From Eledone cirrhosa (lineage: Eukaryota): a stretch of 64,000 nt of DNA. A program made the position numbers and the translations under genes. Position 1 is the first letter of the stretch. Each line of letters starts with the position of its first letter. Below the pieces are notes generated by a model. That model was not told the DNA's origin. It saw only the letters and a program-made list of their open reading frames with translations, and ran no database searches. This document shows positions 3,969 through 64,000 of this stretch, piece after piece. The stretch spans positions 86,676,001-86,740,000 of the forward strand of contig OZ024747.1 of assembly GCA_964016885.1 (NCBI GenBank), given 5' to 3'.

Positions 3969-4511
<543 letters not shown>

Positions 4512-17880: not shown

Positions 17881-19557
17881 TTTTTTATTTGGGTGATCCA
17901 TTTTTTATTTGGGGGATCCATTTTTTATTTGGGGGATCCATTTTTTATTTGGGGGATCCATTTTTTATTTGGGGGATCCATTTTTTATTTGGGTGATCCA
18001 TTTTTTATTTGTGGGACCCATTTTTTATTTGGGGGATCCATTTTTTATTTGGGGGATCCATTTTTTATTTGGGTGGTCCATTTTTTATTTGGGGGATCCA
18101 TTTTTTATTTGAGGGATCCATTTTTTATTTGGGTGATCCATTTTTTATTTGGGGGATCCATTTTTTATTTGGGTGATCCACTTTTTATTTGGGGGATCCA
18201 TTTTTTATTTGGGTGATCCATTTTTTATTTGGGGGATCCATTTTTTATTTGGGGGATCCATTTTTTATTTGGGGGATCCATTTTTTATTTGGGTGATCCA
18301 TTTTTTATTTGTGGGACCCATTTTTTATTTGAGGGATCCATTTTTTATTTGGGGGATCCATTTTTTATTTGGGGGATCCATTTTTTATTTGGGTGATCCA
18401 TTTTTTATTTGGGGGATCCATTATTTATTTGGGTGATCCATTTTTTATTTGGGTGATCCATTTTTTATTTGGGTGATCCATTTTTTATTTGGGGGATCCA
18501 TTTTTTATTTGGGGATCCATTTTTTATTTGGGGGATCCATTTTTTATTTGGGCGATCCATTTTTTATTTGGGTGATCCATTTTTTATTTGGGTGATCCAT
18601 TTTTTATTTGGGGTATCCATTTTTTATTTGGGGATCCATTTTTTATTTGGGGGATCCATTTTTTATTTGGGTGATCTATTTTTTATTTGGGGGATCCATT
18701 TTTTATTTGGGTGATCCATTTTTTATTTGGGTGATCCATTTTTTTATTTGGGTGATCCATTTTTTATTTGGGGGATCCATTTTTTATTTGGGGATCCATT
18801 TTTTATTTGGGGGATCCATTTTTTATTTGGGTGATCCATTTTTTATTTGGGTGATCCATTTTTTATTTGGGTGATCCATTTTTTATTTGGGGATCCATTT
18901 TTTATTTGGGGGATCCATTTTTTATTTGGGTGATCTATTTTTTATTTGGGGGATCCATTTTTTATTTGGGTGATCCATTTTTTATTTGGGTGATCCATTT
19001 TTTATTTGGGTGATCCATTTTTTATTTGGGGGATCCATTTTTTTATTTGCGTGATCCATTTTTTATTTGGTGGATCCATTTTTTATTTGGGTGATCCATT
19101 TTTTATTTGGCGTATCCATTTTTTATTTGGGTGATCCATTTTTTATTTGGGGGATCCATTTTTTATTTGGGTGATCCATTTTTTATTTGGGTGATCCATT
19201 TTTATTTGGGGGATCCATTTTTTATTTGGGTGATCCATTTTTTATTTGGGGATCCATTTTTTATTTGGGGGATCCATTTTTTATTTGGGTGATCCATTTT
19301 TTATGTGGCGGATCCATTTTTTATTTGGGTGGTCCATTTTTTATTTGGGTGATGCATTTTTTATTTGGGGGATCCATTTTTTATTTGGGGGATCCATTTT
19401 TTATTTGATGGATTCCCCAAATAAAAAATGGATCCCCCAAATAAAAAATGGATCACCCAAATAAAAAATGGATCACCCAAATAAAAAATGGATCACCCAA
19501 ATAAAAAATGGATCACCCAAATAAAAAATGGATCCCCCAAATAAAAAGTGGATCACC
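17881..19557. repeat. 20-bp satellite (TTTTTTATTTGGG[G/T]GATCCA)n with orientation switch near 19410
   Basis: About 76 forward units followed by about 7 inverted units. Confidence 0.97.
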
Positions 19558-23094: not shown

Positions 23095-23801
23095 TGACCG
23101 GCCACCTTCCTGGAAAGAAAAGAAATTGTCATCCATTGAATCGCAAGAATGTTTTGCAAATTTTGAAGGTGCCAGCTATCGCAGCCATTTGTAGACTATG
23201 AATTAGGGAGCTGCGCTCTTTATCCGCAAATCCAAGTTCAGTCATACTTTGGTCCAAGCAGGTTGGTATATAACCTGTAGCTCCAATAATGATGGGTATG
23301 AAGCTAAAGGTGTATCTTGGATACTGGATTTGTAAACCCCTCATCAACGGTCCGTAGATGTCCTCCTTCTCCTGTATTTTTCTGACAACGTTTACACCAA
23401 GTGGGCAGCTGATCTCCACAACAGAACACGTTTTCAATGTGTGGGCCCAAACAACAATATCGGGCCGGTTGTGCTTTAATTTGGTGGCAGTTTTTATTTT
23501 CAGGTTCCACCAGATTTCCTTAGTGCCATCTGTCTCAATATATTCTTCCTCGTTTGTTGTTAATTTTGTTTTCCGAAGTGCGTTCCAGATGGTTCTAGCT
23601 ATCCCATCATGTCTCATGGGGAGGTAGTAGCGAGATGACATTCTTTCGCAGCTGGAAACAATGTGGCTTACATCCTCGATCTTTGTTTTACATAGCCTAC
23701 ATTTATTGTCAGCTGCTGGCCCTCCCCTTTTGTGCAGCAGATATTTGATAGGGAGTTCTTGTTCCTGTATTGCATAGAGATATCCCTCAAGGTGTGATGT
23801 C

Positions 23802-23803
<2 letters not shown>
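23095..23803 (-). mobile_element. 5'-truncated RLE-type LINE (open 224-aa C-terminus)
   Basis: AIQEQ, CRLC..HIVSSC finger, RHD, NRPD, KEDIY, PIIIGATG; abuts (CATA)n. Confidence 0.92.
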
Positions 23804-23832
<29 letters not shown>

Positions 23833-24559
23833 TGTATGTATGTATGTATGTATGTATGTATGTATGTATGTATGTATGAGGGAGTGTACACAGACAGACA
23901 CAACCATTATATATTTATTCATATATATATAAATAAATATATAATGTATAGATTTTAATGAGAGTTTATTTTGTCATAAATTTAACATTATATACTCAAC
24001 AACATAAGTATACATAAATCCAAGACAAAACTATCTGTTTGATGTTCTCTCCAATGTTACCAGAATGTTTCTAAACTATTTGAATAATAAGATATATGTA
24101 AGCCAGGGCATCATAAGTGTTTTGATATGAATAATGTGAAGGTAGTCTAGAATTACAGCAGGAAATTTATAGTTTCCCTAGCCAGCTTAAATAGAATAAA
24201 CAATTCTTGTTCGAACATTCAAATCTTTCCTCAATGTAATTTCACCGCTCCACATATTTGTCATCACGACGATAAACGTCGTTCTCAATCATTAGCTTAT
24301 CGAGCTATTGTCACCTTTACTCTTGCAAATAACAGTAAAACAAAAAGCTATGTAGCGCTTATTGGATATCCTCTTTAAAATATTCCCCCATCGTATCCAT
24401 AGGTTCAGAAATCAGAAAAATGACTTACCATCCCTATAACCTAATATATCTGGAATTTATTGGTTCACCATATTAAGAGTTATAGAAACTATTATCCATC
24501 AGAAATCCTCTTAAATTAATTACTAGAGAAGGTGTGAATTATGTTGCGGAGAAGACTTA

Positions 24560-28325: not shown

Positions 28326-31300
28326 CTCTTTGAGTCTCAGTCATTGATGTTAGTTAACTGGAAAGTTTGTTGAAATGAATATCAAGCCTCTACCTGCAGC
28401 CTCAGATATTCAGGACGTATCGGAGGGTTCTTGCTGTTCCCAGCAAGCATGCCTTTTGAAGCGTTCCAAAAAGCGTGAAGGGGCCAATTTTCTTTAACCA
28501 TCCCTGGAAACTTTTTGAGATAGTCCCTAGTGCACCTATGACAATCGGGATCACTTTGACTTCATGGCAGTTCCAAATCCTTTTTACCTCCCACTTTAAG
28601 TCCTGGTATCGGTTAATTTTCTCCCTCTCCTTCTCTTGCACTCTCGTGTCGAATGGGCAGGCCACATCCACAATCAGGCACGATCTTTTTTCTTTGTCCA
28701 CAACCACCAGGTCAGGTCTATTGTGTTCCAGTTTCTTGTCCGTCTGTATCCTAAAATCCCACAGCACCTTCACCTGATCGTTTTCTATCACCGCCTCTGG
28801 CTTATGCTCATACCACTTCTCAGAATGTGGTAAATTGTTTACTTTGCATAGGTGCCAGTGGATCACCCTGCCCATCACATCATGTCTCCAGCCCTTATAG
28901 AGTCTGGGCTAGGTGTTTACACTCGGATACAATGTGAGCCACAGTCTCCTCTCTCTCTCGCCACAGATCCTGCACAGTGGGCTAGCCTCCTCCTTGTAAA
29001 TGTGGTGTTTCAACCACTTTGTTTTGAGGGCCTGCTCCTGCGCAGCCATTAACATTCCTTCTGTAGCCTTTTTAAGGTCTCCTCTTTTCAACCAGTTCCA
29101 TGTCTGTGGATCTCTAAATTCAGTTTTCTCAATTTTCTCAAAGGAAGGTACTATGAATGGATTTTTCCTGAAGGCTGCTCTTTCTCCTTGATGTTATTTC
29201 CTCCTTGGACATCCCCTGGCCTATTGTCCCCTCCTTCAGTACAGTTCTGAGCATTGGCTCCTTACTATCAGTCACGTATTTGTGTAGGTTGTTTTTCTCC
29301 ATCTGAACACAGTCCTCTATGCTGATAAGACCTCTTCCACCTTCAGATCTCCTTAAGTAGAGTCTATCGACATCACTCCTCTTGTGGAACATATTGTAGA
29401 TAGTCAATAGCTTCCTAGTCTTCCTATCCATTTCTTTTTGTTCAGCAACATTCCATCTCAGAATTCCCGCACTGTACCTAATAATAGACACAGCTCGGGA
29501 ATTTACTGCACTTATGGCATTCCTACTGTTCAGATGTGACTTTAATACGCTCCTTACTCTCCGAAGGTATTCAGTTCTTATCAATTCCTTCATTTTTTTG
29601 TTCTTGATGTCATCAGCCTCCAGAACGCCCAAATACTTGTATCTTTCCTCAGAGTCAATTTCCTTTATCATCTCACCTGTTGGTATCTAGATTCCGTTAC
29701 TTCTGCTCAACTTACCCCTCCTCATCACAATGACTCCACACTTACTAATACCAAATTGCATACATATATCATTGCTGAAAATACGGACAGTGTCAACAAT
29801 CACATCCAACTCCTTCTCACTCTTCCCGAAAAGCTTAAGATCGTCAATGAAGAGGAGGTGATTGATGGTAAGCCCTCCCTTTCCCAACCTGTATCCTGCT
29901 CTCACTTTTCGCAGTACACTGGTCAGGGGCATCAGGGCAAGGACAAACAACAGAGGGGACAGACTATCTCCCTGGAAGATACCTCTCTTGATCTTCACGC
30001 TTCCCAAGGATTCTCCAGTTGATGTTAACTCTGTTTCCCAGGACTTCATACTTTTGCCCAACAACTGTCTAATGTTATCTGCCACCTTGAAGATCCCCAG
30101 GCTTTTGGTGATCCAAGAATGAGGCACCATGTCAAATGCCTTTTTGTAGTCTATCCATCCCATGGCAAGACCAGTGTGTCTCCTCTTGCAATTCCTCATT
30201 ACCATTTTATCAATAAGTAACTGGTCCTTTGTACCACGTGACTTCTTTCGGCATCCTTTCTGTTCGTCCGGTAACAAGTTGTTTGTGTGGAGGTGATGGT
30301 AGATTTCCTCAGACATAATGCTTGTCAACAGTTTCCACATTACGGACAGACATGTGATAGGTCTATAATTGGTAGTATCATTACCCTTGATTCGGTCTTT
30401 CATTATCATAACTGTGGTACCTTTTGTCAACCACTCTGGTACCTCACCTGACATCAAGCAGTCATTGAACATGGTTGTCAGTTTCGGGTGGAGGGATGTT
30501 ATGTTTTTAATCCAATACCCCTGCACACCATCTGGGCCAGGTGATTTCCAGTTGGTTAGTTTTTTGGCCTGCCCCTTAAGAGTTTCAACTGTGATACTCA
30601 AATCAGTTTGTTGGTGTGCCTGTTCACTGATCTCCTTCTGTACTGTCTCAATCCACACTGCCTGGTCATTATGTTTAACATCCTGCTCCCATATTCCTCT
30701 CCAGAATGTTTTAGTTTGTTCCGCCTCAGGGATCAAGTCGTTGCCTCTTTCTTTCCCTTCAAGCTGTCCAAACAGCATCTTCTGGTTGTTGTCGAACATG
30801 CGGTTCTGTCTATACTGACTGACCCTGTTCTCGTATCGCCTGATTTTTGCACTCTTTGCTACAATGCATTGCTTCAGTTCCTCTATGATAATATTTAGCT
30901 TTTTCCTCCTAGTGTTGTACTTTATTTCCAGTCTATTTTTAGTGTCTATGTTTTTTAGAGTCCCATTCAGTAGGGACTCAAGCTTTCCAATGTCATTTCT
31001 CATTTCCCTGATTTGACCACCACTCAGTCGTTTCTTCCACCAAGGCTCTGCTCTTTCTTGTCTGTTGTTTCCTCTCGCTTTTATACCAAGTAGTTTCCTC
31101 ACCGTATTTGCTGTTGCTTTGAGGATATTGTTGCACTGGTGAAGGCTCCTCGCCTCAAGGTATGGGATGACTTTGTTTACCTTAGCTGTTGTTTCTTTTA
31201 ACTTTTTCCTGTCTACAAATCTTAGGTTCATAGGTCTCCCACTATCATTGTTCAATTCATCTACCACTAAGTTTAGGATATCAACCAAATCTTGTCCTAG

Positions 31301-31960
31301 CCCGTCAGCATTCATCTCCTCAGTGGCCGTATCTCTGTTCCAGGTATTATTTATCTCAGCATTCAGATCATTGTCTGCTTCGGGTGGTTCCTCCGTTCTC
31401 TCGACCTCTTCACCTTCATTTCCCACTGGCTCGTTTGCCTGGTATACTTCACTCTCCATCTCCAAGCTAATCACTCTGCTCAGTTCCTCCAGTTCCAGCT
31501 CGCTTATCCACCCATTAGTTCTTATTACCCGAGCCTGCCCGGCCAGTTTTTGTTCATCTAATTTAAATGGACCAATCTCGTTCCAGATGTTATGCATCCT
31601 TTTCCTATAGCCTTTCTCCTTGGGGTTACTCTTCAGGTAACATTGCATAACAGTTCTATTCAATTCTTTCGTCCAGTTGGTTCTGGTCCCTTTCCTTCTT
31701 CTTCCTCCGACACCAGCAGTATTTGGTTGACAGCCAGGTCCCTGCTGCTGAGCCAGGGAGCACCTGTTGGGTGAGAGTCTGTCACATGACATTCTAGTCT
31801 CCATTTCACCGTTATTCAAACTGTTTAGGTTCGACATTTAAACACTCTTATCGAGGATTGGCGAATGTATGGTTACAAAACCACCGGTGAATTACTCGTC
31901 TCCGGCGGTTTCGTCACTCCACGTGACTTTTGTGTGGCATTAGCACGCTGTAGACGAACC
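28326..31960 (-). mobile_element. Near full-length R4/Dong-type RLE LINE
   Basis: Single-ORF architecture of RT, CCHC finger and RLE; 3' end at a microsatellite, 5' end near (TTTG)n. Confidence 0.93.
28402..31837 (-). pseudogene. Disrupted RT-RLE ORF
   Basis: WKSPGPDG, YRPITCL, QKG, DYKKAFD, GIFQGDSLSP, FIDD, RHD-region, NRPD; in-frame TAG at 29687 and frameshifts near 29130 and 28900-28960 relative to the sister copy. Confidence 0.9.
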
Positions 31961-32470: not shown

Positions 32471-32903
32471 ATGTGGTCGTATTACTGTAGTGATGGTGTT
32501 GAAGACGGAGTAAAAATTTGAGTCGGCTTGACCAGAGTTTTCATCGTGGCAGTGGTGGTGGTATTGGTGGTGAAATTATCTTTAGTGAAATTATCATTAG
32601 TCGCGTATATGTGTTGACATATTTTCTTAATATTGGAATTAAACATTTTGTTAAAACTAAAACTTGATTATTATTATTATTATTATTATTATTATTGGCG
32701 ACCTACGTAGTAAATCGTATCATCGTGAGCTCCGCAAAGGTTTGTTATTTCCGTTTGTTAAAAATTGCCATTTATGGAAAATTTTATTGTTAACTGTTTA
32801 TAAGCACACATACATTGTTTTCCGAAAAGGACACCCAAAAAGATTGGGGCCTTGTGCCCAAAATTTTAACTTTTATTATTATCAAAAAATTTCTTTGGAA
32901 AAA

Positions 32904-34892
32904 ATGGCTACTTCACCTCTGCCCGAAGCAGCTGAAAGCCTTCCTCACAAAATAACACCTCACACCGACACCACCATTGTAAATGTTACTACGTTTGCCA
33001 ACACCAAAAAAAATATAAGCAGTAGCAATATTTTAAATTTGTCTCAGGCAGACATTCATTTGCCGCCATTACCAATGACTGCAGGTGTTAAACCCTCCAC
33101 CACCACCACCACCGCGACAACCACCACCACCACCACCACCACCGTGACACCAGAAACAAAAGAAGAAAAAAATAAATTAACTCGTGACGTCGAAATGAAA
33201 TCAAGCAAAATGGACTCTTCCCCACCAAAGACGACTGACGTCACCACCACCACAACTGAAAATAAAATTAATATTAACGATAGCAACAACAACAACAATG
33301 ACATTATAAAACCGACCCTCAGTTTCGCCATCGTAGCTAAACAATTCGAAGCGTTCACGGTAACTCAAGAAGATTTAGAAAATGCCAAACAAATGGTAAA
33401 GAAAGATGGGTATAGGGTCAGCCTCACCCCCCCACCTAATAAAATGGAGCATCGGCGCCTGTGCACCGTGTCGTATAGAACAATAAATGTAAAATCGCGC
33501 CGAGTGGAACGGGCATCCGAGTCCCAAATCCAAAAAGCTTTGGGACATGTGTGGGCAAGAAAAACCCACATCAGACGTGGGCAAAAGTATGGAACCGTGG
33601 ATGTGTTCTTTGAAACACCAGAGGAGGCTAGAGAACACTCCATGGCCCCATTAAAAAGTGACGACCTCACACTCGTCCCAAGTTATTGTGGCCAGAGACT
33701 CGTAAAGATCAGGGTGACCCACGTTCCACCGGCCATCGAAATTCCCTGGCTAATAGCGGCTGTCCTCGCCGGCATCGAAGCCAACACGAAAATAATAGCA
33801 GTAGCAAAAGAAAAGCAGGAAAACTGGTCCGGATCTGGGATGGAGCTCCTGATCCAAGCGGACCAAAAAAGCATTGAGGAGATCCCAGAGGTAATAGACC
33901 TCACTGACGGCAGCCACCTCACGGTAATTGTCGAGGGCAGAAGACCTAGGTGTGTCGTTTGTGGTGAAGGAACCCACCTAAGGGCTTTCTGCCCTCAGGC
34001 TAAAAGGTTGAGGCCACCTCTCCTACCCACCCCAGTGACACAACCATCAACACCACCAGTAGCAGAGATGGCAGCAACAACTGTAGCAGCAACAACAGAA
34101 GCAACTATAACAGCAACAACCCCAGCAACAGTAGCAAAACCAACACCACTACCATCACCAGCAAAACCAACACCACCACCACCCAACGCTTCAGAACTAG
34201 CACCAGCGCCTACACCATCCACCACACCACAACCAAAACTAACGGCTGTGGAGGATTTTCCACTCCCCGGCCTATCACAACTGGAGACAGATTGTGACGA
34301 CGAGGAGTGGGAAACGATATCCGGAAAAAAAAAAGAAACCAAAAAAGAAAAAAATTCTCTTCCTTCCCCCTCCAAAAACAAAATACAGAGGGAAACAAAT
34401 AAACTAAGAAACAAAAAAGTTAGGACAGATATGCCACCATCCACACCAGCATCACCAACCCCATCAACCCAAACACCAACACCATCACCATCATTATCCC
34501 CAGCACCACCATCGCCTACACCACAAGAGTCACCAAAATGCGAAACAGAAACAAACCCACAACAAACGCAAACAAAACAAAACAACCAAAACGATACACA
34601 CTACACAGTATTAAATTTGAACAACAAGCAATTATTACACTACATCCAACACAACACCAGCATCACAGAAAAAGACTACACAACAACCCCAAAATTCACA
34701 CCACCTCCACACATACAAATCACTCGCATCACACAGAAAACGTACATGACACTAAAACAAAAATTCCCCAAAGACATCGGAGACTTCCGACAAGCACTCT
34801 CCAGGAGGATTTATAAGGACATCCTTCCTGAGGAGGCCACAAGCAGTGAAAAGGATGGAAAAGCCGTCCTTCCCCTACGAGAAGTAAGGTAA
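32904..34892 (+). CDS. LINE ORF1 nucleic-acid-binding protein (662 aa from the first ATG)
   Basis: CX2CX4HX4C knuckle CVVCGEGTHLRAFC; Thr/Pro low-complexity tracts; ends 34 nt before ORF2. Confidence 0.85.
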   Translation: MATSPLPEAAESLPHKITPHTDTTIVNVTTFANTKKNISSSNILNLSQADIHLPPLPMTAGVKPSTTTTTATTTTTTTTTVTPETKEEKNKLTRDVEMKSSKMDSSPPKTTDVTTTTTENKININDSNNNNNDIIKPTLSFAIVAKQFEAFTVTQEDLENAKQMVKKDGYRVSLTPPPNKMEHRRLCTVSYRTINVKSRRVERASESQIQKALGHVWARKTHIRRGQKYGTVDVFFETPEEAREHSMAPLKSDDLTLVPSYCGQRLVKIRVTHVPPAIEIPWLIAAVLAGIEANTKIIAVAKEKQENWSGSGMELLIQADQKSIEEIPEVIDLTDGSHLTVIVEGRRPRCVVCGEGTHLRAFCPQAKRLRPPLLPTPVTQPSTPPVAEMAATTVAATTEATITATTPATVAKPTPLPSPAKPTPPPPNASELAPAPTPSTTPQPKLTAVEDFPLPGLSQLETDCDDEEWETISGKKKETKKEKNSLPSPSKNKIQRETNKLRNKKVRTDMPPSTPASPTPSTQTPTPSPSLSPAPPSPTPQESPKCETETNPQQTQTKQNNQNDTHYTVLNLNNKQLLHYIQHNTSITEKDYTTTPKFTPPPHIQITRITQKTYMTLKQKFPKDIGDFRQALSRRIYKDILPEEATSSEKDGKAVLPLREVR

Positions 34893-34926
34893 GTGGTCTT
34901 TCCCATCTTTTCCACTCCTTTTCAAC

Positions 34927-37900
34927 ATGACCTCACTCAGAATAGGCAGCATAAATGCGCGTGGCTTGGGGTCGTCATGGAAGCAGGGCCACCTGCTCAA
35001 CGACCTCAGGTCACTAAACATAGATGTAGTGGCCATCAGCGAGACCAGAATCTCCGAAGCACAGGCTTTCGCACCGATCTTCGGCGGCTACGATGTGTAC
35101 GCATCTCCCAGCCGTCCGGGATCGGGGGGAGGAGTTGCTGTGCTTTTTCGGAGAGGTTTGGATCTTGCCATACGGGCCATCTTCCTGGACCCTGAAGGTA
35201 AGTTGGTGGTGCTGGACGTGACCAGCGGAGACGGGCAAGCTTTCAGGTTAGTGGCCGTCTATGCCCCGACAGGAGCAGGGCGGTCTGATTTCTTCCGGCG
35301 TCTGGAGACCTTTCTTGGAACGTCCCGCTCTTTAGTGTTAGTGGGCGACTGGAACGGGATCTTAGATGCACGCTGGGATTGTGTGGGATTAGTGGATAGG
35401 GAAGGAGGGTGCAAGAGTCTCACCAACCTGCTCAGACGTTTTGAACTGTCTGACAGGTACCGAATGGATTTCCCGAATGTACCAATATGGACTTGGACAA
35501 ATCGCATAGGGTCATCCAGATCATATCTAGATAGAGTATTTTGTAGGGAAATAGATAGGTCTAGCATAGGCTGTCCACAATTCAAGATAGTCAGCTACAC
35601 GGACCACAAATTCGTGATCTGTGTGCTTGACTTAGATAGGCTTCATAGACGAGGACCCGGCTACTGGAAGTTAAACGCGTCCTTACCAGCGCGCAAGGCC
35701 TACAGAGACCGGATTAGCGAACTAGTTAAGCGGGCGTTGACGGGGGCCATCGTCAACAACAAGTGGTGGTTTGCTCTGAAAAGAGCAATTAGAATAGAGT
35801 CCATTAGGTTTAGTAAGACTTTAGCAATAGAGAAAAATAGAGCAGAGGGAGAATTAGTTAGAAAATTAGATGAGGCGCTTAGCAAAGGCATCGCGACCGA
35901 CGTACTTGCGGCGAAATTGGCCCTTGACCAATTCTTCAATGCAAAGCACGAAGGCTGCGTTGTCAGAGCTAGGGTGCGTGCTCTCAGACACGAGGGAACG
36001 AAAGCCGTTCAATGGGCCCGAGTGGCGGAGGCGCGTCGTGGCAACAAAGCCACGATCCGGTCTTTGGTGGACCACGACGGGCGCATGCTACTCGATCCCG
36101 GGCAAATGTGTGAAGCTTTTCAGCGACACTTCGCTCAACTGTTCGGGGGCAGTGGCGGGCCGGATCGAGGGATGGACTTTAGTGTCTACCTCGACGGACT
36201 GCCGCGGCTTTCGGCCACTGAGGCGGAGTGTTGCGAAAAGCCGATAACAACCGCTGAAGTACGGGATGCAATGACTAGTTGCACAAGGGGTAAATCGCCT
36301 GGTTTGGATGGTCTGCCCTATGAACTTTACGTACAAATGCCAAACTTGTTCGGAGGCCTCTTGGCGGACGTCTACTGCAACTGGCAACAGAACGGGAGAA
36401 TTCCCAGCTCTGTGAGCCGAGGAGCGGTGGCGCTGCTGAGAAAGGATCCGAACAAGGGGGATAACATAGATAATTTTAGGCCCATAACTCTGCTAAACAC
36501 AGAGTTCAAGATTTTGGCCAAGGTGCTAGCAAAGAAGTTGGCGCTTGTCGTTGGTGGTCTGGTGGGAGAGGCACAGATATGCGCCATTCCCGACAGATCC
36601 ATCCACGACAACCTCCACCTCATGCGATACATCGTAGAGAGGGTAGCTAGGGAACCTGGCACGGGTGGGTCTTTGATCAATTTAGATCAGTCGAAAGCCT
36701 TCGATAGGGTCGACCATCGTTACCTAGCGGCAGTCCTGAGGGCGGCTGGCTTTGGGCCCGTCTTCAGAGGCTGGATCGCTGCCATGCACAGCGACATCTG
36801 CTCTGTAGTGAGAGTGAACGGTCACCTTTCGGAACCGTTCAACATCATGCGCTCGGTTCGCCAAGGATGTCCCCTCTCGTCCCTATTGTACGTATTGACT
36901 CTCGAGCCATTACTGCACAAACTGGAGACGTTGAGGGGGGTCCCGCGCGAACTAGGATGCGGAAGATCCGTGTCAGCATATGCCGACGATGTCACCGTAG
37001 TGGTGTCGAACGCCAAACACATCGAGGCGATCGGCACTACACTAAGAGAATACGAAGCGGTGACAGGAGCAATGATCAACCAGGAAAAGTCAGTGGGCCT
37101 GCAGCTCGGCACCTGGAGAGGCAGGTCCATGCCGTCCAACAGCGTCGTCGGGCGCTGGACGGACGGACCGGTTAAATTGCTAGGGGTCTGGTTCGGTCCA
37201 GACCTCCAGACGGACAAAAACTGGGACGAGGTGACGAGCAGGGTGGCTTCTCTCACCCAGAAATGGGCCGAGAGGAAGCTATCCCTGAAAGGTCGAGCGG
37301 AGGTGGCGAATGCGTACATCGCATCCGTCATCTACTACCGCCTGACCGTTGTACCTTGTCCTAAGCCCCGCCTGACTGCGCTGGAGCGTTTGCTCTTTCG
37401 CTTCTTGTGGAAGGGACGCGCTCCGATGGTCAGGCGGTCCATCTGCTGTCAACACCCGCTACGTGGAGTGCTGGGCATGCCGTGGCTGATGATGCGCAGA
37501 CACGCGCTCAGGCTACGACATCTCCACCTCTTCCTCGACGGTGATCAGGTGTGGTCGCCGTTTGCTAGACACGTTTTTCCCCAGCTCGTCTCCTTGACGG
37601 AGCTGCAGTCCTGGGTCAAGCGAAGACCGAGAGGGAGCGCTTGGAGACTGGAATGTCTTCAGGCGCTCACAGCCCTCGACCAATCGGGCAATGTGATCGG
37701 TGGAAACTCCACCTTGGCGTTCTATAGGGGATTAGTGGAGGGGAAGAGCGACGACGTACTTGGAGAAACTCTAGGCGTCGACGAAAATCAACTGGCCAAT
37801 CTCTTCGGAAGGACTTTCGGGCCGGGGCCTATGGACAACTTCCAGAAATCCCTGGCCTGGCAGTGCTACCGAGGAGCTTTGCCAGTTCGGGATAAACTCT

Positions 37901-38346
37901 ACAGGCATGGAGGTGCCGTCAGCCGGGCATGTCCGAGATGCGCGCAGGGCGACGAAACCGTCCTGCACGCACTCGTCCAGTGTCCGAGCATTGCTGACTT
38001 GTGGGTTTATGTCGAACACCTGCTGTCACGTGTAGGACCTATCCGGCTATCAGCTGAGTCCATCGTGAGGATTGCCCCGCCCCCTTCCTTTAGACTGGAA
38101 GGGCAGGCAGTTTTTATCTGTCTGGTGGCCATGGCGAAAGAGATAGTATGGTGGACACGTTTGAAAGGGCTGAAGACGAGCACTTACCTCTTCGGTGATG
38201 CCCTGATTAACTTTTTCAAATTTCATTTGAAAAGAAAAATCAGGGTAGAGAGGGAAGTGCTCTCTTCCCAGCATTTTGTTGAAAGATGGGTGAGAGAAGC
38301 AAGTATGGCCCGAATGAATGGGCCTTCTCTGAGTATGTGTCTGTAA
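34927..38346 (+). CDS. LINE ORF2: APE endonuclease, reverse transcriptase and C-terminal CCHC
   Basis: SINARGL, SETR, GDWN, YLDR, TDH; SPGLDG, FRPITLLN, DQSKAFD, RQGCPLS, YADD; CPRC..H..C; uninterrupted 1139 aa. Confidence 0.96.
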   Translation: MTSLRIGSINARGLGSSWKQGHLLNDLRSLNIDVVAISETRISEAQAFAPIFGGYDVYASPSRPGSGGGVAVLFRRGLDLAIRAIFLDPEGKLVVLDVTSGDGQAFRLVAVYAPTGAGRSDFFRRLETFLGTSRSLVLVGDWNGILDARWDCVGLVDREGGCKSLTNLLRRFELSDRYRMDFPNVPIWTWTNRIGSSRSYLDRVFCREIDRSSIGCPQFKIVSYTDHKFVICVLDLDRLHRRGPGYWKLNASLPARKAYRDRISELVKRALTGAIVNNKWWFALKRAIRIESIRFSKTLAIEKNRAEGELVRKLDEALSKGIATDVLAAKLALDQFFNAKHEGCVVRARVRALRHEGTKAVQWARVAEARRGNKATIRSLVDHDGRMLLDPGQMCEAFQRHFAQLFGGSGGPDRGMDFSVYLDGLPRLSATEAECCEKPITTAEVRDAMTSCTRGKSPGLDGLPYELYVQMPNLFGGLLADVYCNWQQNGRIPSSVSRGAVALLRKDPNKGDNIDNFRPITLLNTEFKILAKVLAKKLALVVGGLVGEAQICAIPDRSIHDNLHLMRYIVERVAREPGTGGSLINLDQSKAFDRVDHRYLAAVLRAAGFGPVFRGWIAAMHSDICSVVRVNGHLSEPFNIMRSVRQGCPLSSLLYVLTLEPLLHKLETLRGVPRELGCGRSVSAYADDVTVVVSNAKHIEAIGTTLREYEAVTGAMINQEKSVGLQLGTWRGRSMPSNSVVGRWTDGPVKLLGVWFGPDLQTDKNWDEVTSRVASLTQKWAERKLSLKGRAEVANAYIASVIYYRLTVVPCPKPRLTALERLLFRFLWKGRAPMVRRSICCQHPLRGVLGMPWLMMRRHALRLRHLHLFLDGDQVWSPFARHVFPQLVSLTELQSWVKRRPRGSAWRLECLQALTALDQSGNVIGGNSTLAFYRGLVEGKSDDVLGETLGVDENQLANLFGRTFGPGPMDNFQKSLAWQCYRGALPVRDKLYRHGGAVSRACPRCAQGDETVLHALVQCPSIADLWVYVEHLLSRVGPIRLSAESIVRIAPPPSFRLEGQAVFICLVAMAKEIVWWTRLKGLKTSTYLFGDALINFFKFHLKRKIRVEREVLSSQHFVERWVREASMARMNGPSLSMCL

Positions 38347-38628: not shown

Positions 38629-39569
38629 CCTTGAATCTCAGTCATTGATGTTGGTTAACTGGAAAGTCCGTTGGATTGAATATCAAGCCACTACCTGCAG
38701 CCTCAGATATTCAGGACGTATCGGAGGGTTCTTGCCGTTCCAAGCAAGCATGCCTTTTGAAGCGTTCCAAAAAGCGTGAAGGGGCCGATTTTCTTTAACC
38801 ATCCCTGGAAACCTTTGGAGATAGTCCCCAGTGCGCCTATGACAATCGGGATCACTTTGACTTCATGGCAGTTCCAAATCCTTTTCACCTCCCACTTTAG
38901 GTCCTGGTATCGGTTAATTTTCTCCCTCTCCTTCTCTTGCACTCTCGTGTCGAACGGGCAGGCCACATCCACAATCAGGCACGATCTTTTTTCTTTGTCC
39001 ACAACCACCAGGTCAGGTCTATTGTGTTCCAGTTTTTTGTCCGTCTGTATCCTAAAATCCCACAGCACCTTCACCTGACTGTTCTCCATCACCGCCTCTG
39101 GCCTATGCTCATACCATTTCTCAGAATGTGGTAGATTGTTTACTTTGCACAGGTGCCAGTGGATCACCCTGCCCATCACATCGTGTCTCCAGCCCTTATA
39201 GTGGGTCTGGGCTAGGTGTTTACACTCGGACACAATGTGAGCCACAGTCTCCTCTCTCTCTCCACAGATCCTGCACAGTGGGCTAGCCTCCTCCTTGTAG
39301 ATATGGTGCTTCAACCACTTCGTTTTGAGGGCCTGCTCCTGCGCAGCCATTAGCATTCCTTCTGTAGCCTTTTTGAGGTCTCCTCTTCTCAACCAGTTCC
39401 ATGTCTGTGGATCTCTAAATTCAGTTTTCTCAAAGAAGGTACTATGAAGGGATTTTCCCTTAAGGCAGCTCTTCCTCCTTGATGTTATTTCCTCCTTGGA
39501 TATCCCCTGGCCTACTGTCCCCTCCTTCAGTACAGCTCTGAGCATTGGCTCCTTACTATAGGTCACGTA

Positions 39570-39571
<2 letters not shown>
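38629..39571 (-). mobile_element. 5'-truncated sister copy of the R4/Dong-type LINE
   Basis: Highly similar to 28326-29281; open 287-aa frame with CCHC and RLE; (TTA)n on both sides. Confidence 0.95.
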
Positions 39572-39630
<59 letters not shown>

Positions 39631-39649
39631 TTTGTGAGGCTCGCGAGGG

Positions 39650-40060
39650 CAGAGTCTTCAGACTAACCTTCTAGACAGTCCTATAAGAAGCAACTGTATC
39701 CAATGATCCGGCTGGATCCTCAGAGGAGACCATCAAGACTCATGGATATTATCTAATCTACATGCTCGAGGTCTACGTCTGGGTCTCCTGTCGGCTGGAT
39801 TTGAACATAAAGTCTGTCCAGTGGTTGTTTCCTTAGACATCAATTCTCTCTACAATATCATTTCCCACAACAAGGACATTCGCATTCTCCAACAACTCGC
39901 TCTTCAAACTTCTCCACAACTTTGTATCTCTACCAGAATCCGCGTTGCTGAGCTGGTGCTTCTTCGCAACTGCGTTTCTTTCTCGTTTAAGATATACCAA
40001 TTGGTAATAAGTGTGGCGATGGACCCCAAAATAGACCCAAAATTACACCAACGCTTCTAC
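39650..40060 (+). mobile_element. Degenerate Penelope-like RT fragment
   Basis: VVSLDINSLYNII (motif A) and ELVLLRNCVSFSFKIYQLVISVAMDP (motif B, normally Q..G.AMGSP). Confidence 0.75.
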
Positions 40061-52189: not shown

Positions 52190-52330
52190 ATATTTTTATA
52201 TATATATATATATTTTTATATATATATATATATATTTTACATATATATATATATTTTATATATATATATATATATTTTATATATATATATATATATTTTA
52301 TATATATATATATTATATATATATATATAT

Positions 52331-52594
52331 ATTATTAGATATGTTAGCTATCGCCGTATTTTGACTAAAGAAATTAAAGAAATTATTTAGCCTGATAGTG
52401 GGGTTAAGAACCCTCGGAGAAATGGAAAAAGATGAGTATTGACGTGTACGTCAATACTCATCTTTTTCCATTTCTCCGAGGGTTCTTAACCCCACTATCA
52501 GGCTAAATAATTTCTTTAATTTCTTTAGTCAAAATACGGCGATAGCTAACATTTCTAATAATTTCAAATCCACTCGCTGTTTCGAAAATATTCT

Positions 52595-60318: not shown

Positions 60319-60478
60319 CAAAAGGGATATTCAATTTGTTGGTAATTTAACAAATATAAACGTTTATAAATGATTCAAAGAACTCGACAAGTTTTCTGGA
60401 GTATAATATTCAATGATATTAAATAAATGGAAAGTATATTTATAAAACCATATTTATTCTATTATAAATATATATCAA

Positions 60479-60681
60479 TGTGAGAAAAACCACAAACCCT
60501 CCATCTCAATTCTACTTTTGAAAATCACAAGAACTGCGAAACCGGTAAAGGAACCAAATAAATATATTTAAAAAAAACAAGACTCCAGTTACATTTTCGA
60601 TTTCATCTTTTTTCCTTATACTTTCACTCGTGTAGGACACCTCGTTATTTTTCATTTTGTAAAAAAACCTCACTTTCTAAT
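60479..60681 (+). mobile_element. Single-arm relative of the 4094-4454 element
   Basis: Reverse complement of 4094-4305 with substitutions; ends in (TA)n. Confidence 0.85.
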
Positions 60682-60691
60682 ATATATATAT

Positions 60692-60894
60692 ATAGGAACG
60701 AGTAGGACCCCGACGGCTGAGCTCAAGCCGTTTCGACGGCTAATTCTGGACTATTTTAGTCTAGAATTAGCCGTCGAAACGGCTTGAGCTCAGCCGTCGG
60801 GGTCCTACTCGTTCCTATTACCCACTCTACTACCCTAAGTATAGAGTACTTTGGTGTGTTATGGTCCACCTGGTTCCTTACCACATTTCCTTCG

Positions 60895-60896
<2 letters not shown>
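60692..60896. mobile_element. (TA)n-flanked foldback containing the 3' half of a hammerhead
   Basis: Palindrome 60692-60818 with axis at 60755; GAAA-cggct tgagctc agccg-TC at 60776-60798. Confidence 0.7.
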
Positions 60897-60978
<82 letters not shown>

Positions 60979-61471: not shown

Positions 61472-64000
61472 TCAGTCAATGCGATCAGTCGCATATTTTG
61501 GCGTGGGAGACTATTTATTAAATTTAAGATGAATACTATCTCCGACAGTAATGCCACAACTACAGTCATGTTGAATAACTGGTTATTCTTCTAACTATAT
61601 CTTCTGAAGACAACTTTTATTCGAATTCGTAGAGATATCCGACTAAATACATAATTCATTTTACAAGGATTTGCTACAAACACCATGGCTGAACACAACA
61701 TTCAACAACACAATTAAGGAAGTATCGAAGACAAACAACAAGAAAGGTAAACAAACTTTATTCAGTTGTAGCTACAGAAGAAACCGAAATTATAAATCGC
61801 ATTTCTCTTGGAGTTGCGAACTTAATAATGATTTATTTAATTGCTATAAAACGGCAAAAAAACAATCCCTCCATTGGCTATATGAATAGAATGAAGCTAC
61901 ACTGGGACGAAATGCACCCAGAGCTAAATTATTTCACAGTGAAACAATTACGCCAACAAGCGACGTTTGTTGAACGTAAAAATAAGATAAATATTAATTG
62001 TAAGTCCCCCACAACAAACATGGGATCAACAACACGTGCTGCTGGTCGCCATGCTACTAGACTAGCAGCCAGGTCGAACAGCGCCTTTAAACAACTATGC
62101 CTGTAAGAAACTTGACACCACCTTGTACCATCTAAGTCTACCTCGAATGCTGGGGAAAACACTATCGATAATAATAATAATAATAATCGAAGAAATTTGA
62201 CACCACGTGTACCATACGAGTCTCCCTCGACTGTTGTGGAAAATACTATCGATAATGATAATAATCAAAAGTATAAACAATTGAAAATTTCCCTCAACGA
62301 AATCTTCCAGTGAGAAATTAATTCATGTATAAATATCTCTCTTGCTGAACGTATTAAAACGACAATGTTTAATAAAAAAACAAAAAAAAAACAAAACAAA
62401 TAATGAAATATTACGTGTTATTGACGATGGATATTGGGGATGAATATTTACGACGGATAAAAAGCCCAACATTTTGGCAAATCAACGCCTGTTTATATGT
62501 CTTAGCAACGACAGTGAAGCATTATCTTGGTGATAGCAGAGATATTAACAAGAACAAAACACCACCAAAAATACCATCATATATAACTAAAATAGAAAAA
62601 AAGATTGCTGACCTACGAAAAACCATAGGATAGGTGACAATGCTCCTTACAGGCAAACAAACACAAAAAATCTTACTCCTCACCAAGAAAGAGTGAAAAA
62701 TAAAATAGAGACGATGTTTGGTAACAGTAGAACCAGAACACTTCAATATAAGCTGATCACCCTCAAACAAGAATTGAGAGCTGTTAGCGAAAAACGCCGA
62801 AACCTGAAGAAGGTAGATGAGAGAAAAGTGCTTAATAAAAGATTCAGACGAAACCAAACATAAGTCTATAGAGATATGAAGAACAAAATAATAAGTGTCA
62901 CTGAGGCCTCACCCCAGAAAGACAGATTCCTTTTGGAGCAAAATATGGGGTGAAAAGAAGAATTTCAACCAAGATGCAGCGTGGCTAAGAGAAATCCGAA
63001 AGAACTATTGCTCCTACACTACAACAAAAACATACGAAATAAGTGAGGGTACCCTTGAGACTGTGATAGGAAAACACCAAGATAAGAAAAGACCAGGAAG
63101 AGACATGATTGTCGGCTACTGGTACAAAAAACAGATCTTCTATCGGAGGTATCTTACTGACCTCTACCAACAAGTTCTTAAGGGAGATACACTTATACCA
63201 GAATGGTTGACATTAGCAAAAACATTACAGGTCCCCAAGAACAAAGTCACCCACTTGGCAAAAAACTACCGACCCATTGCATGCCAGAACCTGATGTATA
63301 AGATGTATACAGCCTGCCTGAACCTATTCCTCCAAGATCACTGTGAAAATAATAACATCATCACAGATGAACAAGCAGCTGGAAAGAAAGGGGTTTGGGG
63401 ATGTGCTGAACAACTCCTAATAAACAAAACTGCGATGTCGGAAGTGCGACAACTTAGGAGGAATATGGCTACAGTCTGGCTGGACTACAGGAAAGCTTTC
63501 GATTCTGTTCCCCACTCTTGGATGATAGAGGCCCGCCAAATTGCTAAAGTCCCAGACATTATTGTCAGAGCCATAGAGAGGCTGTCTTCTTCTTGGGCTA
63601 CTATCCTAAGGTTAAAGACAGAGAGTGAGGACTCTATTTTTACTGATAAAATAAAATATCACCGGGGTATATTTCAGGGGGACAGTCTCTCTGTGATATT
63701 ATTCATCTTGTCATTAAACTCCTTGTCCTTTCTGCTCAAGAAATGTGAGGGATACATCATTGGCTCGCAGGAAGACAGAAATACGAACCTAACCCATAAT
63801 TTCTTTGTGGACGATCTGAAACTCTATGGCAAGAACATGGATGGGATGAAGAAAAATCTTGACCTGGTTACAACGTTCTCAAAGGATATAGGAATGGAGT
63901 TTGGCCAAGATAAATGCTCATACATGACTGTAAACCCAATCTAGCAACATTGTCATCAATGGCCTAACTATTTCACCGATATCTGATGAGGACTGCTACA
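61472..64000 (+). mobile_element. Degenerate RLE-type (R4/Dong-like) LINE, 5' part, running off the window
   Basis: GYMNRMKLHW N-terminal motif; RT YRPIAC, QAAG, DYRKAFD, GIFQGDSLS, FVDD; multiple stops; starts after (TACA)n. Confidence 0.9.

Follow-up and report, generated by a model that had tools for sequence, protein, structure and literature searches.

The closest described systems to the element analyzed here are the C-terminal EN+ Penelope-like elements (PLEs) of the Hydra clade, which the pertinent passages of PMC8557442 characterize by RWK and DKT motifs, a CxCx5C linker, the absence of CCHH, (TA)n targets and units that are generally shorter than 3 kb. The origin of the tandem and inverted ends of PLEs is named there as an open problem, and palindromic PLE junctions have been interpreted, in general terms in the passage concerned, as self-priming on an antisense template (PMC3846280). 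According to the relevant sections of PMC11167929, the PLE protein of Anolis Poseidon (PAc) cuts and extends both target strands in vitro, two internal RNA start sites define the tail, and ribozyme cleavage is dispensable. Passages in other sources locate the Penelope promoter in the pLTR (PMC2377424), report U3-A8 as a hammerhead variant of PLEs (PMC4209133) and attribute the extra G at full-length L1 junctions to the cap (PMC11702581).

Here we analyze a palindrome in a 64,000-nucleotide stretch of the Eledone cirrhosa genome (contig OZ024747.1, positions 86,676,001 to 86,740,000), hereafter the window. The palindrome, inserted in (AT)n, is a short stub of a Penelope-like element, of a kind present in thousands of copies, and the family supplies countable evidence on the open question of PLE integration.

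A palindromic stub and its element family

A sequence-only reading of the window had described a foldback with a G-T pair in the central hairpin and perfectly matching outer arms and had attributed it to a Penelope insertion. The palindrome is real, with two 62-bp inverted arms around a 3-nt TTT centre (60692-60818) and a single mismatch, G60748 opposite T60762, which is the G-T pair of the central hairpin. The folding z-score of the palindrome is -26, and none of 200 shuffles folds equally well. The plus strand of the window is the sense strand of the element, and element positions are counted from 0 at window 60818. The features are as follows.

60478..60680, plus strand: adjacent family B stub that has a compact UUGANAA hammerhead of its own and whose (AT)n tail houses the studied palindrome
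60680..60694: left part of the (AT)n target, doubling as 3' microsatellite of the family B stub
60692..60753, minus strand: left arm, inverted and without a tail, spanning element positions -61 to 0
60754..60756: TTT at the junction, either native or added without a template; it is not the native stem II loop
60757..60818, plus strand: right, direct arm, the 5'-truncated end repeat of a Penelope-like element
60757..60803, plus strand: 3' half of a type I hammerhead (stem II 3' strand, GAAA, helix III, GUC, stem I 3' strand)
60758, plus strand: A(-60) in TTAGTC, breakpoint hotspot and putative capped transcription start (+1)
60819..60898, plus strand: one-sided tail, approximately 78-80 nt past the mirror, ending in (AT)n
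60896..60972: (AT)n target, right side

The outer end of the left arm reads CCTAT and runs into (AT)n, and the tail of the stub likewise ends in TAT, so that both outer ends lie at TAT (0 and +78/80). In full-length elements, the tail sequence runs on into the leader of the ORF-bearing unit.

An exact 29-nt tail pattern produced 24,237 matches in the 3.0-Gb genome of the same species and none when reversed, which puts the family at no fewer than 24,237 tail matches. In a non-inverted copy (L023), approximately 1.25 kb of 3' untranslated region lies upstream and is preceded by a reading frame; with this frame as the query, we retrieved copies with open frames of up to 819 aa, 20 of which were fetched. 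The stub is contiguous with the 3' untranslated region and the leader of this ORF-bearing element, and full-length copies carry the same end region both before and after the ORF, with the first ATG of one copy (L133) located 171 nt after position 0. A Pfam scan of two of the translated frames (P0001 and P0002) gave no match; by inspection, the 787-aa open frame of P0002 contains the YRDDG motif of the reverse transcriptase (RT) followed by a C-terminal GIY-YIG domain (VIYQC...AYIG). Thus, the attribution to a Penelope-like insertion holds, and the features expected of EN+ PLEs are all present: a single ORF combining RT and GIY-YIG, partial-tandem pLTRs, an inverted 5'-truncated copy and a one-sided tail. 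In P0002, DKG is altered to DKT (SDKTGN), RWR is found where the Hydra clade has RWK, CCHH is missing between GIY and YIG in the EN, the linker is CNCPDRSIC (CxCx5C), and CNLC (CxxC) and CKH (CxH) lie near the C-terminus, around the conserved E and N; the insertions of the family lie in (TA)n, as for the Hydra clade. Motif inspection accordingly points to an element with Hydra-clade features as these are given in the pertinent part of PMC8557442. In other respects, the element and its layout are ordinary, the family joining a known kind in a known layout.

The mirror arms can reach kilobases: three head-to-head pairs in the same genome (C2:173049863/173053444, C1:395697097/395700223 and C2:343904533/343908119) have an inverted arm that includes a large part of the ORF. 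Elsewhere in the window, two long open frames of 743 and 1152 aa (32661-38346, plus strand) look, by eye, like LINE ORF1 and endonuclease-RT ORF2, and RT-bearing non-LTR fragments, apparently of the restriction-like endonuclease type, were likewise noticed by eye at 28402-31837, 38703-39662 and 23129-23914 (minus strand) and at 62895-63944 (plus strand). An abundant repeat of about 190 bp is found at 846-1040 and in more than ten further places of the window on both strands, and an inverted array with a short unit of about 20 nt is located at 19333-19492.

The predicted hammerhead and the breakpoint hotspot

The order of elements in the right arm was confirmed as that of a hammerhead 3' half: GAAA (60776-79), helix III with the palindromic loop TGAGCTC, GTC (60796-98) and GGGGT (60799-803), with a predicted cut after 60798 (position -20). 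The 5' half (ACCCC-UUGANAA-G...) lies upstream of the putative transcription start and is absent from the window copy. It had been suggested that non-inverted copies carry the canonical CUGANGA after ggacccc; among 62 intact arms, namely those matched by one regular expression over the collected loci, none does, ACCCC being followed by TTGANAA in 51, CTGAGAA in 10 and CTGAGAG in one. In the same 51 arms, a core is found that keeps the 3-8 pair (U3-A8) along with GAAA, NUH and three helices. The constrained fold of this predicted U3-A8 ribozyme lies within 1.5 kcal/mol of the best fold in two of three intact copies and is unfavourable in the third. The Rfam scan returned no hammerhead family among its 66 matches. 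A hairpin at 60769-60784 (AGCCGT-CGAA-ACGGCT) competes with the hammerhead fold, and the best folds of two of the three intact copies differ by less than 2 kcal/mol.

The central hairpin of the palindrome had been taken for a pre-existing RNA structure, on the strength of its G-T pair and short loop. In non-inverted copies, native stem II has another 5' strand, a longer stem and a predicted apical loop at about -70 to -64; hence, the central hairpin of the window is a product of the inversion. The G-T pair goes back to a C>T variant in the right arm, which only one of 36 readable tail arms from the unbiased set carries.

The inner ends of the arms cluster near A(-60). The breakpoint set comprised the first 91 tail matches along contig C1, taken regardless of their junctions, and the 30 loci chosen for likeness to the window were excluded from the counts; the parsing of inverted arms is imprecise in a few calls (e.g., L031, or over-extension at palindromic centres). 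Fifty-three of the 91 tail arms end at -66 to -53, that is, within 14 nt around window 60758, whereas 12 end further upstream (9 beyond -120) and 26 downstream; for the 82 arms that end within 120 nt, the number expected in this interval is 10. Arms end most often at A(-60); in native stem II this base belongs to the 3' strand, and the apical loop is predicted to lie 4 nt away. This A lies within TTAGTC or TCAGTC, a motif that resembles the Pol II initiator. The inverted arm is adjacent in 68 loci, distant in 11 and not found in 12. Among the adjacent arms, the outer end lies exactly at 0 in 47 and the inner end at -66 to -53 in 49. Their junctions contain filler in 29 cases, an overlap in 30 and are blunt in 9.

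The same distribution bears on the mechanism proposed together with the foldback, in which the cDNA self-primed at a pre-existing stem II hairpin of the ribozyme. The axis does lie close to the apical loop of the native stem, there is a resemblance between the mirror arm and the 5' strand of that stem, and one copy (L048) retains part of the native loop beside the mirror arm. Under such priming, however, the native loop and 5' strand should stay in the centre, yet the window centre consists of mirror sequence with neither, and only three of the 91 tail arms end between -67 and -120, so the native loop is almost never kept. Because this mechanism also leaves the extra G described below unexplained and is contradicted by family B, we regard it as very improbable; it is contradicted for the bulk of the copies, although a few percent may have formed in this way.

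For family B, 12,337 pattern matches were obtained, with stubs in the window at 4080-4454 and at 60478-60680. Its arms are arranged head to head, both outer ends lie in (AT)n at a spacing of about 62 nt, and its hammerhead is compact, with a UUGANAA core. Eighteen of 30 arms (with both arms of some loci counted) end within -2 to +12 of one A, at CAGATG; this A precedes the ribozyme core by 42 nt and is 53 nt away from the stem II loop. Since this hotspot lies outside the ribozyme, the inversion axis does not track stem II across families; of the suggestion that breakpoints fall at stem II, the non-random placement survives, on the 3' strand of stem II in the family of the window, but not its extension to other families. 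By hand count, the non-native bases before the family B hotspot A are G in 48 cases, T in 32 and A in 20, a modest excess of G to which mirror arms and GA runs contribute.

Family C, with 4,343 pattern matches (window 52329-52564, and L187, L191, L192 and L195), is a tRNA-headed repeat whose copies lie in (AT)n in tandem and head-to-head arrangements like those of PLEs; it may be a SINE that a PLE carries. ARAGORN called tRNA-Ser in four of the five loci scanned. Its inversions cluster on the 3' side of the tRNA part, with the hotspot inside the tRNA-like head and no evident extra G, so that not every hotspot marks a cap. These families nest repeatedly in one another's (AT)n tails (window 60680-60694; L104, L107, L174, L192 and L193).

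The non-native G and the joining of the arms

At the position preceding the hotspot, -61, intact copies (n=44) have T in 42 cases, C in two and G in none. Genome-wide, junction arms of one subfamily group were counted singly, as exact matches in which -61 is A or G and with C-first rows excluded; the base is G in 2,073 and A in 425 (n=2,498). In a set of 54 truncated arms, 23 have T at -61. A site-specific, non-native G thus occurs at the hotspot, on either arm or on both; it is usually single and confined to this one position. Among the first 100 non-native bases one position downstream, before G(-59), 14 are G by hand count, and before A(-64), G was hand-counted in 10 of the first 100 rows, a control diluted by intact variants; a second capped start at A(-64) is not supported by this count. 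By hand estimate, the mirror arm could have supplied the G in about 30 of 85 listed G rows, which leaves about 55 G against 15 A, and the extra G is also found directly after (AT)n runs.

At 299 loci, both arms end at -60, three bases apart. In 32 of the first 50 of these (hand count), both arms carry the G, giving GGACT-C-N-G-AGTCC. Oriented to the tail, these 32 junctions read CAG in 15 cases, CTG in 14 and CGG in one, with two not orientable, and they represent at least five subfamily signatures; given both orientations and this number of signatures, they are not copies of one master stub. It is conceivable that stubs spread as ready-made palindromic mini-elements from a few masters, or that long palindromes collapsed by central deletion: identical junctions do recur, and some copies have shorter, lopsided centres joined at microhomologies. 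To this origin we give almost no credence, because the junctions are highly diverse, the recurring junction is found in several subfamilies and in both orientations, and a deletion would not create a non-native G.

Whether the second arm was copied from the first can be judged from the relative reach of the arms. Of the 68 adjacent pairs, 28 have a tail-less arm that extends further 5' than its partner, in 10 the two are equal and in 30 the tail-less arm is the shorter, so that the asymmetry is balanced. Fold-back self-priming, in which a single cDNA, having reached the 5' end of the RNA, turns back on a few bases and serves as its own template for the second arm (cf. the general proposal for an antisense template in PMC3846280), strictly fits 8 of the 68 junctions and would account for the subfamily-diagnostic bases that the arms of a pair share (over 13 nt, 34 of 48 pairs are identical and 46 of 48 have at most one mismatch, compared with 14% and 23% of random pairs). 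Such sharing, however, is also expected from RNAs of the same locus or the same wave, and it does not discriminate one RNA from two. A fold-back from the tail arm cannot yield the class of 28, in which the tail-less arm reaches further 5'. Furthermore, for the C-N-G junctions, with the same non-native terminal G on both arms and one base between, fold-back would require pairing of the terminal base across a loop of a single base, and the two orientations are represented 15:14; in 47 of 68 pairs, a fixed TAT forms the end of the second arm. We consider self-priming of this kind decidedly unlikely.

The extra G and the stop at -60 can also be explained by double priming of another sort, with an uncapped RNA end or a hard block (cleavage, a bound protein or the stem II apex) at -60 and with the G as an untemplated C added by RT at any run-off. 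In its favour are the nearness of the hotspot to the apical loop predicted for native stem II, a distance of 4 nt, the untemplated T and A runs that occur at junctions and the stops of family C inside a tRNA-like structure. A general run-off addition fits poorly with a G that is limited to one position, usually single, before an initiator-like A; the hammerhead is predicted to cut at -20, at a distance of 40 nt, and the family B hotspot lies outside its ribozyme. We judge this explanation unlikely. Three further candidates for the stop were tried and rejected: hammerhead cleavage, as the predicted cut is at -20 and the hotspot at -60; a fixed-length ruler, as the distance is 60 nt in family A (that of the window) and 150 nt in family B; and splicing at YAG, as the fillers vary from junction to junction.

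At the centre of the window copy the extra G is lacking; with the T's counted as native, the arms extend to -61 and -63. Somewhat longer RNAs may have contributed these T's as native bases, or the T's may stem from A-tails added without a template; other junctions of the family show T runs too, of variable length.

Proposed double priming on a capped RNA and its relation to known systems

Taken as a whole, the palindrome in the window is probably a short Penelope-like insertion in which both (AT)n target ends primed cDNA on sense RNA and both cDNAs ran off the probably capped 5' end at 60758, likely to be joined head to head. From the sequences, A(-60) would be a Pol II start, and the extra G would be a copy of the m7G cap. 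The endonuclease would cut both strands within (AT)n, and each target ATA end would anneal to an internal UAU, about 61 or about 139 nt from the RNA start, and be extended. Both cDNAs would run off the capped 5' end of the sense RNA, copying the cap as an extra G, and their ends would be trimmed or tailed and then joined by host end-joining with microhomology or filler; either one or two RNA molecules would fit as the template. The ribozyme would be a bystander, the start site happening to fall in the DNA of its stem II. An RNA begun at -60 would hold only the 3' half of the hammerhead, and consequently only the downstream repeat could form a hammerhead in cis. Among the nine measurable near-full-length copies of the 20 fetched, one starts at the -60 site, two start downstream and six extend further upstream, so that longer read-through templates or template jumps are needed as well.

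More generally, we lean towards the view that PLEs integrate by symmetric double priming, at two internal sites of a capped sense RNA, with both cDNAs copying the cap before they are joined head to head. If this is the case, double priming explains the inverted pLTR and the one-sided tail together and excludes antisense self-priming, and genome sequences would reveal the start sites of PLEs to the single base. With a cap-like G at one base of the two arms, genomes would offer a countable signature that separates sense from antisense templates and one cDNA from two. We found no published report of a cap-derived G at inverted PLE junctions, in a search of titles, abstract openings and passages that covered few subscription papers. 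The proposal names one base, two priming sites and one target, and is amenable to the existing in vitro PLE system (PMC11167929).

With the Hydra clade, as described in the pertinent passages of PMC8557442, the element shares the single ORF with RT and C-terminal GIY-YIG, DKT, the CxCx5C linker, the lack of CCHH, CxxC/CxH, (TA)n and a hammerhead in the end repeat; it differs in its unit of about 3.6 kb, in RWR instead of RWK within the RW[K/R] motif and in a U3-A8 core with a long stem II. The tail of about 78-80 nt also contrasts with the 30-40 nt that this source gives for PLEs. The predicted ribozyme resembles the PLE hammerheads covered in the relevant sections of PMC4209133 in being of type I, with a short helix I, a long helix II, a palindromic loop 3 and the U3-A8 covariation, whereas here helix III is a stable 5-6 bp and the putative start bisects the predicted ribozyme.

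The stubs have the same head-to-head inverted 5'-truncated pLTR and one-sided tail as EN+ PLE insertions (the legend to Fig. 2 of PMC8557442; the corresponding passage of PMC3846280). The proposed mechanism fits the in vitro behaviour of the Anolis PLE and a promoter in the pLTR, as far as the cited passages go (PMC11167929; PMC2377424), and disagrees with the antisense self-priming outlined in PMC3846280; our data favour capped sense RNA as the template, and two cDNAs. In common with L1 twin priming, as treated in the passage of PMC11702581, the second target end would prime inside the RNA and the extra G would mark complete copying to the cap. The two differ in the relation between the two cDNAs, which here span the same 60 nt and can both carry the G. 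In L1, inversions generally join non-overlapping parts. Finally, the Anolis PAc element shares with ours the cutting and extension of both strands, two internal start sites that delimit the tail and AT-rich targets, ribozyme cleavage being dispensable there (PMC11167929); the passages concerned offer no explanation for the inverted arm or its inner end, and the start site is described there as not homologous to the cut DNA, whereas in the family analyzed here both sites end in TAT, matching (AT)n.
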